Shown here piece after piece: positions 24,984 to 32,075 of a DNA stretch of 32,075 nt. Below the pieces are notes generated by a model. That model was not told the origin of the DNA and made no database searches. It worked only from the letters and a program-made list of their open reading frames with translations. Location: NCBI GenBank assembly GCA_052055015.1, contig JBQJIT010000089.1; one strand, given 5' to 3'. The position numbers and the translations under genes were made by a program. This DNA comes from Malassezia furfur. Taxonomy: Eukaryota. Each line of letters opens with the position of its first letter. The stretch's first letter is position 1.

Positions 24984-27393
24984 ATGAGCGCACACGCAGC
25001 GAGCGCGGTTGCGCCCGTGCGGCGCGCCGACGACCCCGCGGCGCGGTCCGTGGCGCCTGCACGCGCCCCGCTGGAGCGTACGTGGCACCCACTCACCCGC
25101 AGCGCTGTATTTGGAGCCGGGCCCGCTAAACCGCCTATATCTCTCGGTAAGCTCGGGGATTCCGTCGCAGGTCGCCTGGGCGCTCGCGCGCCTCGCGCTG
25201 TACACGCAGCAGCTGGGCGACCGCTTCCAACTGGCCGACTACCCTGGGCTGGATGAGGCGCTTGTGCGCCTTGTGCGCCGCCTGACGCTCGCGCTGCAAG
25301 GGGCGCCGCGCGCCGACTGGGACGAGGACGTGCCCGACGTGACTGCGAGCAACCTGCGCATCGATCAAGGCATCGGTGCCCCCGGCGAGAACGGCGGGAT
25401 GGACCTCGCCCAAACGCATGTCGCGTTTGCGCGCATGCGTGTGCCCGAAACGCCGCCCGCGTCGTTCGCGCCGCAGCAGGTTGCACGCGACGCAACATTG
25501 TTCCAGCACGCGGCGGGCGCCGTCCTCGTTTTGCGCAACGTGGTCCTGAGCACTGCGAATGCCGCCCAGCTTACTGTGGTGCCTGGCGTGCTGCAGGTCG
25601 TCTACGAACTAGCGCATGCGACGATCGAGGCGCCCGCAGCGCTCCGGGGGGGCGCGTGGGCAGACGTACGCGGCAATGCGCTCGACATTCTCGAGGCAGT
25701 CGCGCCGCGCATCGTGCTGAGCGAGTGGGTGCGTACCACCTACGGCCAGCGCGTGCCGCCCGTGGCGCGCACCGCGCCGACGCGCACCGAGGACCAGGTG
25801 TTTGCGCTGCTACACACCCTCCTGCACACCACGCGCGACCGTGCGCTGCTGTTGGCGAGCTTGCGGTGCCTGCGCGCGATCGCAATGAACGAGGCCAACG
25901 TGCCGCAGCTTGTTGACGCCACGCCGCAGCTCGAGCCGACGCAGCTCGGGCTCACGGCGCGGTGTGTTGCGCTGCTGCCTCTCACGCAGGACCCAGAGCT
26001 GCTCGAGGCGGCGGTCGATCTGTTGTACCAGATCGCGGCGACGGGCGAGAATGCGCTGCTCCTCGGCACGCTCATGCTCGCCGACGTGTGCGACGTGGGC
26101 TACGGCGCGGGCCTTGCGCGCCGTGCGCTGCACGAGGCGGAGCCGCCGGCCGACGCGCCCACCGACACCTCGCTGGCGCGTGCGGTTGTGGCGTACCTCG
26201 CGCGCAACGTCGACCTCGGCAAGACAGTGTGGGAGCGCGACTCAGCGATGAGCGCCAACACGAGCGCTGCGTGGGCGCCCCACGTCCCGAGCGCTGCGCG
26301 GACACGCCGCGAGCGCGAGCGCGAGCGGCGCTTGCGCAAGGAGCACGCCACGCCGCAGGAACGGGCCAAGTGGAAGGAGCTGACGCGCGACGAGCTCGAG
26401 CGGCTCCGGCGGCTGGATGAGCCAATGCGCGGCATTGAATGGTGCGTGTGCGACTGACACAGGATGCAGCTGCTGTTTGAGCGCGACCCCCATGGTGAGG
26501 TGACGCAGATGGAGTTCTGGATCGCGTACCGGGACCAGTTTACGCCGATCGCGGCCGAGGGCGGCGTCGCGCTGCAGCCTGCGGCGAACCTCATCCGCAA
26601 CGTGTCGCAGACCTTCCCGGGGGCCGCCGCCGTGGTCATCCCGTCGACGATGGGCGCGCAGCCGCGCTTCATCATCCGCGGCATCTCGGTGCGCGACCGT
26701 AGTACCCCGCGCATCGAGTGCGCGTGGGAGGCGTGCCCGGCGCCGCACGTCGGCGACTGGGACGCCGTGCGCGAGCACCTTGCCGTGCATGCCCAGGCGG
26801 CGCGCGACGGGCAGTGCCGCTGGCGCTCGTGTGCGTACGCCATCGATCCACGCGACCCACACCGTGCTGCGCGGCTGTACGCGCACGCGCTAACACACAC
26901 GCCGCGCGACACGCCGGTCCACACCGCGCAGCCAGCCGAGGGCACACAGGAGAACCCGGGCGTGATTACGTTTACCGTCGAGCGCACGCCGTCGGTGCCC
27001 AACGCGACGCCGGGCGAGGCGCCGCTGCCGTGCGGCGTCGCATTCCTCTCGGCGCTCGTACTGCGCTTTGTGGCGCGCGCAGCGCACAACGTGCTCAAAA
27101 GTGCGGGGCAGGGGTGCCCGCCACAGACGTACGGCGGTGCACAGGCGGCCACCGCGCAGCCGGGCGACCGCGACGAGCGGTTCGGGTGCCCGGTGCCGCG
27201 CTCCGTGCAGGACGCCATGCAGGACGCCGCACAGCAGGCATCGGCGCTCACGCCGCGGCACATGGCCGCTGCGACAACGGTCATGGAGGCCCTGGCGCTC
27301 GCAGAAGAGGGTATGGTACAAAGCTCGTTGCGGAACGACATCCTATGTCGTCTACTCAACGATATTCTCGTGGCCATCCGACCCGTAGCGTAG
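24984..27393 (+). CDS. RSC9: RSC chromatin-remodelling complex subunit Rsc9-like (armadillo region, RFX-like winged helix, C2H2 fingers)
   Basis: EPGPLNRLYLSVSSGIPSQVAWALARL, WMQLLFERDPHGEVTQMEFWIAYRDQF...AANLIRNVSQTFPGA...RFIIRGI, CAWEAC...HLAVH, CRWRSC...HALTH. Introns 25078-25102 (25) and 26442-26462 (21). Confidence 0.83.
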
Positions 27394-27571
27394 TGTCTCG
27401 AGAATGTAACGATATGCTGGGTGTGAGTCAGCTCGCGGGGAAGAGGGACCATCAGGGAAGAAGGTGTCTATCATGAAGATCGGTAGTCTAACATATGTGA
27501 CTCGCCGAAGCGAAAGCATCCTCTGGTCCCATGCATACGTACCGTGTGACGAGGTGTGTCCGTGTGCGCTG

Positions 27572-29980
27572 TTACGGCGTCGGCGCCGGTGGGGGGGCGT
27601 CGGTCGTGGCGGCAGGGGGTTCCTTCGCCTCGGGCTCCTTTGCCGCGGGTTCCTTTGCCGCGGGGTCCTTCGCCTCGGGGTCCTTCGCCGCGGGGTCCTT
27701 CGCAGCCGAGTCCTCCTCTGGTTCCTTGCTCACGTCGTGCTCGGTCGCGCTGCCATTCGCCGCACCAGGCGCATCCGCACACGCCGCGGCGTCTTTGGGC
27801 ACCGATTTGAACACGTGCCGCTGGACAATCCCCTCGCAGTGTGCCAGCTCGTCCATGAGCTCCTGTTGCACGTGCTGGAACGTGTGCACATACTCGGCGA
27901 GTGCTGCCCGCAGATCCGCCACCTTTTCGCGCTCGAACCGGAGCATCTCCTTCTTGCACAGCGCCGAAACGTCCTCGAATCGGTTCTGCAGCGAGGCGCT
28001 GGCCAGCTCGGCATTCGACAGGGCACGCATCTGCGCATCGATGTGGCCAGTGGCCGTGCGCCTGTGCCGTGCCTTGAGCTTGGCAAGGTCATCGTCCGCG
28101 CGCTGCCACGCGTGCCATACGTCAATGCGCGTCGCAAATGCCTTGCGTACGCTGCCAATCAGCCGCTCGTACTCGTAGAAAACGAGCTGGAGGACGTGCG
28201 ACTCGTGCGACGCCAGGCGCGTCGATGCCTCGGCGCTGCGTTTCTTGAGCTCAGCGAGCGCGCCAAAGCACGTCGACACGCTTCTCGACAGTGCCCCGCC
28301 AGACAGGGTGACGAGGTGCTTGTACAGCACGGTCTGTGCCTCGGCAAGCTCGTGTCGCCGTTGGGCAAGCGTATGGATCGCGGCAACAATGTCGCGCAGG
28401 CGCGCCTCGAGCTGCGCAAGGTACTCGAGCTGCTGGTTGAACCACTCGTCCGTTTCGTGGAAGCGTACATTGTACAACGACTGGCTCCACCCGAGGTAGG
28501 TCTTCTGCTCGGGTGTCACAACCGCGCCCTTGACTGCGTCGCGCGCCTTGATATCGGCCGCGAGGTGCGCGCTTTTCAGGAAGAGCACGAGGTCTTCGTC
28601 CTTCTGTAACAGTGGGTGCTCCAGCATCTTTTGCAGTGCCTGTTCCAGGGCACGCCGGCGGAACTCGACCAGGTCGGGCTTCATGTTGTTCAACTTGACC
28701 TTTTCGGGGATCGGCGGGACCACCACGCCGGGGTGGTTGTGGACTAGCGCCGCGTGCAGCCAGCGGAACTCGCTGTAGCGCCGTAGTGCCGACCACTCCG
28801 CTGGGCCGCCGAGCCATGGCGCATCGGAAGCCACCCGCACGGTGTATACGACGTGCGACGAGACGCGGTCGCTGATCCGCTGCGGGTTACATACGCGCAC
28901 AGAAAACGTCGCATGCGGTGCATCTGCGTCGCGCGGCGGCACAGTGGCCGCGGGGGTATCAGTGGGCGAGCGGACGCCGTAGCGCGCCGCGTCGTCGTCC
29001 GGCGTGGCCGGTGCGTCGGCAGGCGCATCGGCAGGCGAGTTGTTTGCGCCCTTTGGCGGCGGCGGAGGGCCACGCTTGGCCAGGTACTCCCGCCACCACG
29101 TCGCAAACGCAACACACTCCATCGGCAGGCCGAGCGCGACCGACGCCTGGGTATCGAGCTGGCAGTTGCCCGGCCGCTGCGTCGCCGCGTTGGGGTCTGG
29201 CGTGCGCTCGGGCACGAGGTGGTCCGTCACAACCTTTACTCCAGAAGCCGCCTCCCATGCGGCGGCCATGGTCAGGCACATGTCGTACTTGGTCATGGCC
29301 TCGGCCGCAGAAAAGTGCAGGATGGGCGGCAGTGGTCCCTGGTCGTATGCACACACAGCGAGCAGGAAACGCGCAACATCTGCCACGTTCGTAGGGAACC
29401 GCACGCCGTGGGCGTCCATCTTGGCCGGCGCCGTCTGCTGCAGGGCGCCGAGCAGTACATTCACAGCCGACTCCCCGTCGTATTCTGTGTCGCCGTACAG
29501 CACCGGCACACGCACACACGTCGCCTGCCCGGGCTGGGAGGCAGCCGCGATCGCTTTCTCCGCATCGAGCTTGCTCTGCCCGTACGCATTGAGGGGGTGC
29601 GGCGCATCGTCCGGCCGATAGGGCGGGTGCGCCCCATCGAAAACATAGTCGGTCGAGAGATGCACAAGGCGTGCAGGACGCTCGAGAGTCGCACACGCCG
29701 CAACCAGCTGCGAAGGCACATCGACATTGAGCCGGCGCGCCTCGTCGGGGTGTGCCTCCATTGCATCCGGCCGGCGCTCGGCGGCGGTGTGGATCACTGC
29801 GTCCGGCTGGACATCGGCGAGCAGCGCACGCACCGCGTCCGCGTCGCACAGGTCGAGCTTGCGAAGCGCCCCATGCGCACGCGAATATGCCACGCCCACG
29901 ACCTCATCGCCGCGGGCCTCGGCCGCCGCGACAACGGCGCGGCCCAGGAGCCCCGAGGCGCCCGTGACCAGCACACGCAT
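27572..29980 (-). CDS. VPS5: Fusion protein: N-terminal MAT2B/RmlD-like extended SDR plus PX and BAR domains of a Vps5/SNX1-type sorting nexin
   Basis: One 802-aa ORF. SDR part: VLVTGASGLLG, HTAAERRPD, STDYVFDG, PLNAYGQSKLDAE (YxxxK), RFPTNVADVA, RPGNCQLD. PX part: HVVYTV...RRYSEFRWLHAAL...PGVVVPPIPEK...VEFRRRALE. BAR part: ETDEWF...YERLIGSVRKAF...RFEREKVADL. Confidence 0.9.
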   Translation of the reverse strand: MRVLVTGASGLLGRAVVAAAEARGDEVVGVAYSRAHGALRKLDLCDADAVRALLADVQPDAVIHTAAERRPDAMEAHPDEARRLNVDVPSQLVAACATLERPARLVHLSTDYVFDGAHPPYRPDDAPHPLNAYGQSKLDAEKAIAAASQPGQATCVRVPVLYGDTEYDGESAVNVLLGALQQTAPAKMDAHGVRFPTNVADVARFLLAVCAYDQGPLPPILHFSAAEAMTKYDMCLTMAAAWEAASGVKVVTDHLVPERTPDPNAATQRPGNCQLDTQASVALGLPMECVAFATWWREYLAKRGPPPPPKGANNSPADAPADAPATPDDDAARYGVRSPTDTPAATVPPRDADAPHATFSVRVCNPQRISDRVSSHVVYTVRVASDAPWLGGPAEWSALRRYSEFRWLHAALVHNHPGVVVPPIPEKVKLNNMKPDLVEFRRRALEQALQKMLEHPLLQKDEDLVLFLKSAHLAADIKARDAVKGAVVTPEQKTYLGWSQSLYNVRFHETDEWFNQQLEYLAQLEARLRDIVAAIHTLAQRRHELAEAQTVLYKHLVTLSGGALSRSVSTCFGALAELKKRSAEASTRLASHESHVLQLVFYEYERLIGSVRKAFATRIDVWHAWQRADDDLAKLKARHRRTATGHIDAQMRALSNAELASASLQNRFEDVSALCKKEMLRFEREKVADLRAALAEYVHTFQHVQQELMDELAHCEGIVQRHVFKSVPKDAAACADAPGAANGSATEHDVSKEPEEDSAAKDPAAKDPEAKDPAAKEPAAKEPEAKEPPAATTDAPPPAPTP
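27618..27707 (-). repeat. Coding minisatellite, 6 x 15 nt, encoding (A/E)AK(D/E)P pentapeptides in the Vps5 C-tail
   Basis: Plus-strand units: ggttccttcgcctcg, ggctcctttgccgcg, ggttcctttgccgcg, gggtccttcgcctcg, gggtccttcgccgcg, gggtccttcgcagcc. Confidence 0.95.
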
Positions 29981-30039
29981 GGAGGCGGAAACGGAAGACC
30001 CACGTGACGCCCCGCGCGCGCGACGCGGTGGAGGGCGTC

Positions 30040-32075
30040 ATGATCGCCGAGGCGTGGGCGGCCGCCGAGCGCGCGTGCCGCGCCGAGCATGCCGCCGGCG
30101 TGGACGAAGTAGGTGTCTCGCTCACCCAGGCATGGGCGTGTGTGGAGCGCACATTTGATCCGAGTGCGCCGGCATCGGCGGACGTGCGCGAGAGTGGTAC
30201 GTCGTCCACTCACGCAGCGTCGGTGCAGCACGCCGTGGACCAGGTCCACACGCACCTCGACGGCCTCGACGCATGGTACTTGGATGCATGCGACCGGGTG
30301 TTTGCTGACTTCTGCCATGAGATGCTTGCGCCGCTGCACGAGGCAGGCGCGCACGACGCCGTGCCGGGTGCCATCGACGCGTGCTATACGTGGATGTGCA
30401 CGCGGCACGCGCTGCTTGGTACCGACCGCGGCGAGCTGGGCGTTCCCGGTGCAAGCGCCGCTTTTCTGCTGCAGTGCCAGACGAACTTTACACTCGCGAT
30501 GCGCCCCGCGGCACTCGAGACGCTCGCAGCCTACTTTGCGCACGGACTGTCAAGTGCGCACAACCACATTGTCGCCGACGCCGAATGCATCCAGGTGGCC
30601 GCGCAGCTGCGTGCACTTGGGCTCGCGACCTACGTGCAGGGAGTCTTGACAACCACCGCGACGCAGTTCCTCGAGGCCGCCGTGCGCCGCGAGACGCACG
30701 GCGCGGCGGCGCACGCATTGGAACATGCGGCGTTCCCCCGGATGCACGACCTGCTGCAGACGCAGCTTGTGCCTGCGCTCGAGGCGCTGCTCGAGGCACG
30801 CCCCGGCGGCGTACACCTCATGGACGAGCCGCTGCGCGATGCGTGGGACACGAGCGTTTCCCACGTGCACGACGATGCGCTGCATGCGAACCCCGAGCAG
30901 GCGTCGCTGTACCTGCGCCTCGAGTACCGGCTCTCGCGCGCGCTGGGCCACGCGCGGTACGTGTTCCCCTGACGCAGCCTTGCGCAGCTGTTTGACATTG
31001 TCGGCACCTACCCACGGAGCCGCGCGGCGCTGAGCGATCTGATGGTACGCCGCATCCTCACCCAGGTGTGGCTCGAAAAGTCGGACGAGCGTGTGGCTGT
31101 CGCCGACGTGTTCCTGGCGACGCTGCATGCGCGCCTGCTGCACCCCGGCGTGGACACGCACGCGATCTTGGTGTACTACGTCAATATTGTGTACGCGCTG
31201 CGGCTCGTCGATACCTCGGGCGTGATTCTGTCCAAGGTGCTGCCGCCCGTGCAGCGGTACCTGCGTACGCGTCCCGACATCATCCCCGCGGTCGTCAATG
31301 CGCTGCTGGGCGACGATGACGCATTTGCGCTGCTGCGCATGGAGCTCGCGAGTGCGACCGCCTCGCTAAGCCGCAGCGCACGGCTCCAGGAGGACGATGC
31401 GGCGCAGGCGCGGCCCGAGTACTGGATGGATCCGACGTGGACGCCGCGTCCGGTCGATGCAGGCCCCGAGTACAGCCAGATGCGCACGCGCGACGTGATC
31501 GACTTGCTGGTGTCCATTTTTGACGACCACAATGGGTTCATCCATGCGCTCGAGGAGCATACCGCGCAGCAGCTCGTGCGCACGCAGGACTACGATACGA
31601 CGCGCGTGGTACGTCTACCCACTGATACAGCAACGCAACAACGATATCTTCAAGCGGCGATTTGGCGAGAGCAGTTTGCACCACTGCGACGTGATGCTCG
31701 CCGACATTGCCGCGTCACAGACGAGCGACGCGGCATTCCACGCGGCGCGCGACGCGGCGCTGCACCGGACGCCCGCGCCTGCCGTGCACGCGCTGGTCAT
31801 CTCGCGCCAATTCTGGCCGGACATTGATACGCGCGCGTTTACGCTGCCGCGGCGCATGGCCGAGGCGCTCGAGGCGTATGCGGCACACTATGCCGCGGCG
31901 CAGCGCAAGCGGCGCGTCAAGTGGCTGCCGTACCTCGGCACGGTCGACGTCGAGGTCGAGATGAACGACGGGCGGCGCGTGCGTGCGTCGGTGATGCCGG
32001 TCGAGGCGGCGGTCGCCGAGCTCGTCGCGGGGATGGGCGTGCCCGCCGAGGCGGCCGAGGCGGCGGCCGTGGTCG
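30040..32075 (+). CDS. APC2: Anaphase-promoting complex subunit 2 (cullin-like), 3' end outside the window
   Basis: LFDIVGTYP, RLLHPGVDT..IL..Y, LRLVDTSGVIL...YLRTRPD, WTPRPVDAGP, RFGESSLHHCDVMLADI, VISRQFWP. Introns 30957-30977, 31045-31065 and 31609-31630, plus probable in-frame 21-nt introns 30109-30129 and 30197-30217. Confidence 0.93.

Follow-up and report, generated by a model that had tools for sequence, protein, structure and literature searches.

A probable fusion of a MAT2B-like dehydrogenase/reductase domain to the sorting nexin Vps5 in Malassezia furfur and other Ustilaginomycotina

Do the retromer sorting nexin Vps5 and a relative of MAT2B, the beta subunit of methionine adenosyltransferase, form a single protein in Malassezia furfur, and if so, how might it have arisen and what might it do? 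The question is raised by a 32,075-nucleotide stretch of the M. furfur assembly GCA_052055015.1 (contig JBQJIT010000089.1), hereafter the window, in which an open reading frame (ORF) at 27572-29980 had been predicted to encode a short-chain dehydrogenase/reductase (SDR), a linker, and PX and BAR domains. We find it reasonably probable, with origin and mechanism as proposed below, that this gene encodes a Malassezia retromer-type SNX-BAR Vps5 with a complete MAT2B-like SDR at its N-terminus that binds nicotinamide adenine dinucleotide phosphate, NADP(H). Databases already list the architecture, as Vps5; its sequence is not new, its biology is unstudied, and the window gene, an orthologue of deposited proteins, is no discovery by itself. 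Endosomal sorting has Vps5/SNX1 as a core and well-studied component, and the retention of the fusion across a fungal subphylum hints that Vps5 and MAT2B-like proteins may cooperate, which could be tested in the genetically tractable Ustilago maydis.

Domain composition of the fused gene

As predicted, the ORF runs from ATG to stop over 802 uninterrupted codons (Table 1). The motifs on which a complete extended SDR had been proposed are all found in the translation (GASGLLG, STDYVFDG, YGQSK, AAERRPD, ESAV and RFPTNVADVA), residues S109/T110 and Y133/K137 are intact, and Pfam places RmlD_sub_bind at residues 1-283 (E 1.2e-57). The domain scan also bears out PX and BAR domains downstream of the linker, with PX at residues 394-470 (E 4.1e-22) and Vps5 (BAR) at residues 504-710 (E 7.6e-42). 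The linker, originally described as Pro/Ala-rich, of about 55 residues and devoid of stop and start codons, indeed has neither an in-frame stop nor an in-frame Met between residues 305 and 356; its length is 52 residues. In-frame Met residues occur at positions 1, 74, 188, 229, 234, 238 and 287 and the next one, 433, lies within PX, so that a separate PX-BAR protein would be without an ordinary start codon.

The SDR half (query residues 1-315) matched human MAT2B with E 2.4e-56 over residues 2-286, vs E 1.3e-18 for the best RmlD structure (1vl0), and similarity to MAT2B was undetectable past residue 286. These scores place the SDR within the RmlD family on its MAT2B branch, where the original prediction had put it. 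To our knowledge, MAT2B is a much-studied regulatory protein with an NADP-binding SDR fold and without a known catalytic role. Residues G7, G10 and G13 are conserved in 26/26 fused and 29/29 stand-alone proteins, and S109, T110, Y133 and K137 are invariant in the aligned proteins. Moreover, 66 alignment columns are at least 90% conserved in the 29 stand-alone SDRs; at 58 of these at least 90% of the 26 fused proteins have the same residue, and the window SDR agrees at 61. The elements kept comprise the glycine motif, R34, AAERRPD, STDYVF-G, Y133/K137, P-LYG and R-PT. The retention of 58/66 ancestral columns suggests that the fused SDR is probably functional, and the conserved motifs make binding of NADP(H) plausible. 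Mean identity between the window protein and 12 Malassezia orthologues is 0.60 for the SDR, 0.72 for PX, 0.63 for BAR, 0.32 for the linker and 0.09 for the C-terminal tail, values by which the SDR appears to be under as much constraint as the BAR domain.

For the C-terminal half, the closest solved match is Chaetomium thermophilum Vps5 (6h7w, retromer coat; E 1.4e-53), ahead of SNX1 (E 4.2e-37) and well ahead of SNX5 (E 4.9e-8) and Mvp1 (E 4e-6). Judged by these matches it is, as had been predicted, a Vps5/SNX1-type PX-BAR, and it is nearer to that type than to the SNX5/Vps17 or Mvp1 subfamilies. R400, R401 and Y402 of the PX domain are invariant in 13 aligned Malassezia proteins; the PX RRY motif marks binding of phosphatidylinositol 3-phosphate (PI3P).

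An AlphaFold2 model built on 13 Malassezia sequences (mean predicted local distance difference test, pLDDT, 72.6; predicted template modelling score, pTM, 0.44) has a confident SDR at residues 1-305 (pLDDT mostly 80-95), a disordered linker at residues 309-353 (pLDDT below 50, about 32), PX strands and helices at residues 359-484, BAR helices at residues 512-560, 566-641 and 647-726, and a disordered tail at residues 725-802 (pLDDT below 50). The model thus describes a beads-on-a-string protein, the halves of which are predicted to be without fixed mutual packing. The tail carries a run of pentapeptide repeats (AAKDP / EAKDP / AAKEP / EAKEP, encoded at 27575-27802), of which M. brasiliensis has little and the other orthologues nothing, and which looks like a recent species-specific low-complexity expansion.

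Distribution and origin of the fusion

A full-length search returned 83 proteins at E ≤ 0.001 among 8000 candidates scored, and 74 of these (P0002-P0075) carry PF04321, PF00787 and PF09325 together. Fused proteins are present in at least 10 named Malassezia, with M. brasiliensis as the nearest named relative (89% identical); the others are M. obtusa, M. yamatoensis, M. psittaci, M. vespertilionis, M. nana, M. pachydermatis, M. cuniculi, M. arunalokei and Malassezia sp. CBS 17886. Outside Malassezia they occur in Tilletia, Exobasidium, Pseudozyma, Ustilago, Sporisorium, Kalmanozyma, Melanopsichium, Tilletiaria, Ceraceosorus, Testicularia, Parajaminaea and Sympodiomycopsis. Most bear the name "Vacuolar protein sorting-associated protein vps5" in the databases or are labelled as its relatives. 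Whether the architecture had been catalogued was left undecided in the original prediction; the fusion it described stands, and it is catalogued in at least 10 named Malassezia and in many smuts and their allies. Our literature search, which did not cover supplements and left subscription journals mostly outside, found no paper that discusses an SDR-Vps5 fusion; the sole mention in print that we found is in a 2010 survey, a table of which has RmlD_sub_bind among the domains co-occurring with PX (PMC2837644).

Eight of the 83 matches (P0076-P0083) are listed with PX and Vps5 only. Three of them (P0076-78) begin within the SDR C-terminus (BLASTP to residues 249-303, E 1e-9 to 2e-7), as does P0079, judged by eye, and P0080 and P0081 begin in the linker; these six were rejected as unfused relatives. 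Among the eight, only the Agaricomycete-type P0082 and P0083 (Multifurca) are truly unfused and have a classical free Vps5 N-terminus. High-identity short PX-BAR matches were likewise rejected as free Vps5; their contigs are shorter than 2 kb, and they were regarded as fragments. Neither a free SDR nor a free Vps5 was found for any named Malassezia in the full-length, short-SDR and PX-BAR protein searches. Two further matches stand apart. P0074 is a fused SDR-Vps5 with a smut-type VDESPLNLAA motif that is filed under the plant Cichorium endivia, and it probably stems from fungal DNA within the plant's assembly. P0084 (711 aa, E 6.6e-7), an RmlD-like/epimerase SDR with an AMP-binding domain (PF00501), is the only other long SDR match in the full-length search and is unrelated to the Vps5 fusion.

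In metagenome DNA, 5/48 loci match both halves (L001-L005). L001 and L002 each have one ORF of 810 aa. L003 has 818 open codons from about SDR residue 30 to the stop, with the first ~30 residues in another frame, and the match span of L004 and L005 is the same as that of L003. The out-of-frame first ~30 SDR residues of L003 (2941-3100 of that locus) include the glycine motif; the lineage of L003 probably has a short 5' intron that the window species lacks. An alignment of 13 Malassezia proteins further revealed that the linker varies widely in length and sequence and is always in frame. The predicted single-ORF fusion is thus upheld when relatives are checked, both by the fused matches and by the frame kept in three Malassezia-type DNA loci, and with high probability, on this comparative evidence, the fusion is genuine and subphylum-wide in Ustilaginomycotina.

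The linker itself differs between Malassezia and the other fused lineages. As described by Chen et al. (PMC12000511), a PL motif of the DPLG type in the disordered Vps5 N-terminus binds Vps29 and is needed for retromer association and Vps10 recycling. No PL dipeptide was found on scanning the window linker (residues 305-356), and when linkers of Malassezia-type proteins of equal length and PL content were collapsed into 21 distinct ones, 15, the window's included, were without PL. Linker length is 48-152 aa in Malassezia-type proteins and 122-473 aa in non-Malassezia fused proteins (27 with a locatable SDR end). The non-Malassezia linkers open with a helical stretch rich in Glu and Lys; 25/28 of the proteins have one PL or more, and 17 have xPLNL(A/S/R)A, e.g. 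EESPLNLAA and EEDPLNLSA. The corresponding motifs of free Agaricomycete Vps5 are SDDPLESA and ASDPLDSA. These PL motifs suggest that the long linker would be the ancestral Vps5 N-terminus. A comparison meant to reveal remnants of the Agaricomycete Vps5 N-terminus (NPF/DPF motifs) in the long linkers gave nothing but low-complexity BLAST matches and an NPFR motif in 6/23 proteins, and was uninformative. In Malassezia an acidic run followed by RYGxxSP, at residues 328-340 of the window protein, is a conserved linker element in which R333, Y334, G335 and P339 vary little or not at all across 13 proteins; (D/E)n-YGxPSP is seen in many Exobasidiomycete-type fused proteins and is degenerate in Ustilaginaceae. 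In the AlphaFold2 model this motif has low confidence and is without confident docking.

Stand-alone relatives of the SDR are widespread. A short-protein search with the SDR gave 2362 matches, with stand-alone SDRs of ~300 aa and 42-48% identity in Mortierellomycota, Mucoromycota, Pucciniomycotina, Agaricomycotina, chytrids and others (e.g. Mortierella, Mucor, Rhodotorula, Cryptococcus, Agaricomycetes and chytrids). In an IQ-TREE phylogeny of 68 SDR domains, 26 fused proteins and 13 short ORFs form one clade with a support of 100 in the Shimodaira-Hasegawa-like approximate likelihood ratio test (SH-aLRT), and 29/29 named stand-alone SDRs from other fungal groups lie outside it. The fused clade has a long stem (0.55) and seven clade-specific conserved positions.

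The 13 short ORFs inside the fused clade were not convincing as separate genes, their ends reaching a presumed intron or their contigs being tiny (P0085 is on a 1.4-kb contig). Seven smut-type ORFs (P0087, 88, 90-93, 95) are 87-89% identical to fused models over ~310 residues and diverge right past FEDWWRPYLAE with a GTN codon, V(R/C)xQ...L and an early stop, which suggests that the ORF caller read into an intron starting with GT. A deposited 323-aa SDR-only model from Violaceomyces palustris (P0096) ends like the smut-type ORFs (YLEE followed by VRDHNG...). The SDR-only models P0087-P0095 run a few codons past the junction (YLAE, then VRTQ...L and a stop); if the junction intron were sometimes retained, a single smut gene could yield both a free MAT2B-like protein and a fused Vps5. 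In 31/32 stand-alone SDRs checked, the chain ends 6-14 residues (median 9) past FxxW, with varied tails, and the fused proteins run on from exactly where the stand-alone SDRs end. Smuts appear to have an intron at this junction, and Malassezia reads straight through it.

These observations would fit a single ancient fusion in the Ustilaginomycotina ancestor, in which a 5' splice site just before the SDR stop codon would have joined the SDR gene to a downstream VPS5. The intron-poor Malassezia would then have lost the junction intron, leaving the fusion in one exon and obligatory. In the same genus the ancestral disordered Vps5 N-terminus would have shrunk to 48-152 residues, and in the window species the PL motif would have been lost, so that contact with Vps29 would be weaker or made by another route. 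The Malassezia proteins would in this respect be a natural experiment on how much disordered Vps5 N-terminus, here trimmed, retromer needs.

Proposed function and competing explanations

The most likely picture drawn from the comparisons is that of a working Vps5 with a MAT2B-like head, flexibly tethered, still functional and able to bind NADP(H). PX would bind PI3P and BAR would dimerise on endosomal tubules, as they do in other Vps5/SNX1 proteins, and each dimer would display two folded heads, both binding NADP(H), at the end of flexible tethers of ~50 residues. The SDR would most likely retain its ancestral MAT2B-like activity (cofactor binding, possibly redox chemistry), confined to the endosome, and would probably act without the grip on S-adenosylmethionine (SAM) synthetase by which the human protein puts its tail into a tunnel. 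A bolder proposal, which we rate as improbable, is that the fusion acts as a Rosetta stone, MAT2B-type proteins having a conserved, unrecognised job at the retromer/SNX-BAR coat also where the two proteins are separate, animals included, and that in Malassezia the SDR head or the acidic-RYGxxSP element may replace PL docking. If true, it would mean, for example, that redox or methionine-cycle state is coupled to retrograde sorting.

Several points weigh against a functional, singly derived fusion. The tree was a quick one with SH-aLRT values only, it included 42 of the 120 listed short matches beside the 26 fused domains, and one outgroup row (Sorochytrium) is misplaced. The smut junction intron is deduced from protein ends, and some lineages may make a free SDR, as the Violaceomyces model indicates. 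The binding of PI3P and NADP is deduced from motifs, and the role proposed for the SDR is tentative. Furthermore, 56% of 20,000 composition-matched shuffles of the 52 linker codons, at 75% GC, remain open by chance. The open linker thus proves little by itself, and this openness would suit an arrangement of two adjacent same-strand genes with a GC-rich spacer that lacks a stop by chance. We give such an arrangement almost no credence, since the case for fusion lies in the cross-species comparison: most of the matches are fused (74/83), the frame is kept through very different linkers in 13 aligned Malassezia proteins and 3 DNA loci, and a separate Vps5 would lose half its PX, there being no in-frame ATG from residue 287 to Met433. 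It is the shared frame, kept in many species, that argues for more than chance. The main rival to the functional fusion, and one that fits the data equally well, is a neutral fusion of two independent functions, in which an accidental single transcript leaves the halves to their old jobs (cytosolic MAT2B-like activity and Vps5 sorting), perhaps after cleavage of the linker and without cross-talk. The disordered linker, poorly conserved and variable in length in Malassezia, the lack of a fixed packing of the SDR on PX-BAR in the AlphaFold2 model with its low pTM, and the conservation in each half of its own family's residues all speak for it. We nevertheless regard it as doubtful, as named taxa throughout the subphylum, Malassezia, Tilletia and Ustilago among them, have kept the join, the short linker motif is conserved, and the failure of a free SDR or Vps5 to turn up for named Malassezia would mean that all SDR activity there is tied to a membrane-binding dimer.

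Two other explanations concern what the SDR does. The original prediction suggested that the fusion tethers a SAM-sensing module to endosomes, and a version of this would have the SDR act as a true MAT2B that binds SAM synthetase and thereby recruits the synthesis or sensing of SAM to PI3P-positive endosomes. Among solved relatives human MAT2B is the nearest by a wide margin, and the glycine motif of the NADP site defined in MAT2B is conserved (PMC4107924). However, as shown by Murray et al. (PMC4107924), human MAT2B holds MATalpha2 by a free C-terminal tail (K315-H323, isoform V2) buried in a tunnel at the dimer interface, and deleting the last 15 residues abolishes the complex; NADP is unnecessary for the complex and does not bind to it once formed. 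The fused chain extends ~500 residues past the point equivalent to the MAT2B C-terminus, leaving no free tail, and the fungal stand-alone orthologues have short, varied ends past FxxW. With its C-terminus tied up and no similarity to MAT2B past residue 286, the fusion is, from the alignments, unlikely to have the canonical grip on SAM synthetase, though the two might bind in another mode; the SAM-sensing tether is so far unsupported, and a true MAT2B role seems to us quite unlikely. Less probable still is that the SDR works as a nucleotide-sugar 4-reductase (RmlD or NRS/ER type), anchored at endosome/Golgi membranes and making rhamnose or another 6-deoxy sugar. The strong Pfam RmlD_sub_bind match, the intact and invariant Ser/Thr-Tyr-Lys catalytic residues and the automatic naming of many fungal orthologues as dTDP-4-dehydrorhamnose reductase would agree with it; true RmlD structures, by contrast, score ~38 orders of magnitude worse than MAT2B, and the substrate pathway is probably absent, most Basidiomycota being without the RHM and NRS/ER enzymes needed for UDP (uridine diphosphate)-rhamnose according to a phylogenomic survey (PMC8092308).

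Gene neighbourhood and comparison with known systems

The features of the fused gene are collected in Table 1.

Table 1. Features of the SDR-Vps5 gene in the window
Feature	Residues	Position in window	Strand	Details or evidence
Whole gene (P0001)		27572..29980	-	802-codon ATG-to-stop ORF plus stop; SDR-linker-PX-BAR-tail
MAT2B-like extended SDR domain	1-304	29069..29980	-	Pfam, human MAT2B match, AlphaFold2, conserved columns
GxxGxxG in SDR	7-13	29942-29962	-	
Y133xxxK137 in SDR, intact	133-137	29570-29584	-	
Pro/Ala-rich disordered linker	305-356	28913..29068	-	AlphaFold2, low identity, PL scan, stand-alone C-termini
Short linear motif in linker, acidic run then RYGxRSP(T)	328-340	28961..28999	-	
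PX domain, with R400-R401-Y402	357-490	28511..28912	-	Pfam, invariant columns, AlphaFold2, C. thermophilum Vps5 6h7w match
BAR domain (Vps5 C-terminal-like), three long helices	491-726	27803..28510	-	Pfam, AlphaFold2, C. thermophilum Vps5/SNX1 matches
Disordered species-specific C-terminal tail	727-802	27575..27802	-	AlphaFold2, low identity, AAKDP/AAKEP/EAKEP repeats

Elsewhere in the window the large ORFs belong to the usual eukaryotic repertoire (RhoGAP-LIM, tRNA methyltransferase, cytochrome c haem lyase, RPC82, HSF, Oxa1, vezatin/Inp2-like and ANAPC2), and no second SDR, Vps5 or SAM synthetase was found within the 32 kb. Between the start codon of the fused gene and the first ATG of a divergent ORF at 30040-30972 (+) lie 59 bp (29981-30039), which, if that ATG is real, are a very short bidirectional promoter region. 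This ORF and the one at 31042-31827 (+), an ANAPC2-like TPR match (E 1.6e-18), probably form an APC2 gene together. Two antisense ORFs overlie the fused gene, 27473-28609 (+) of 378 aa and 28913-30007 (+) of 364 aa; both are rich in Arg, Gly, Ala, Val and Leu and are most likely by-products of the 63-75% GC and not genes. Finally, the consecutive, Pfam-negative ORFs at 25399-26457 (+) and 26464-27393 (+), 352 and 309 aa long and 6 bp apart, may belong to a single gene that a stop, a frameshift or a short intron interrupts.

Set beside known systems, the SDR head resembles human MAT2B (2ydx, 4ndn, 4ktt) in its extended SDR fold with a GxxGxxG NADP site and in the shared motifs AAERRPD, S(S/T)DYVFDG, YGxxK, P(V/I)LYG, ESAV and RFPT; unlike MAT2B it is without a free C-terminal tail, as the chain continues into the linker and PX-BAR. 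With RmlD, the bacterial dTDP-4-dehydrorhamnose reductase (1vl0, 1kbz), it has the Pfam family and the Ser/Thr-Tyr-Lys residues in common, but it is far more distant from it (best E 1.3e-18). The stand-alone fungal MAT2B-like SDRs (~295-320 aa) are 42-48% identical to it over the full window SDR, whereas they terminate within 6-14 residues past the FxxW helix and fall outside the fused clade. Like the SNX-BAR proteins Vps5 and SNX1-SNX2, the C-terminal half has a PX domain with RRY followed by a three-helix BAR, with a disordered segment before PX, and an acidic PL motif resembling the DPLG that binds Vps29 (PMC12000511) is retained in the fused relatives outside Malassezia. In classical Vps5, such as P0082 and P0083 of Agaricomycetes, the disordered N-terminus is long and free, whereas the corresponding segment of the window protein is 52 aa long and without PL; and where Vps5/SNX1 proteins begin with such a segment, the fused protein begins with a folded SDR of 304 aa.

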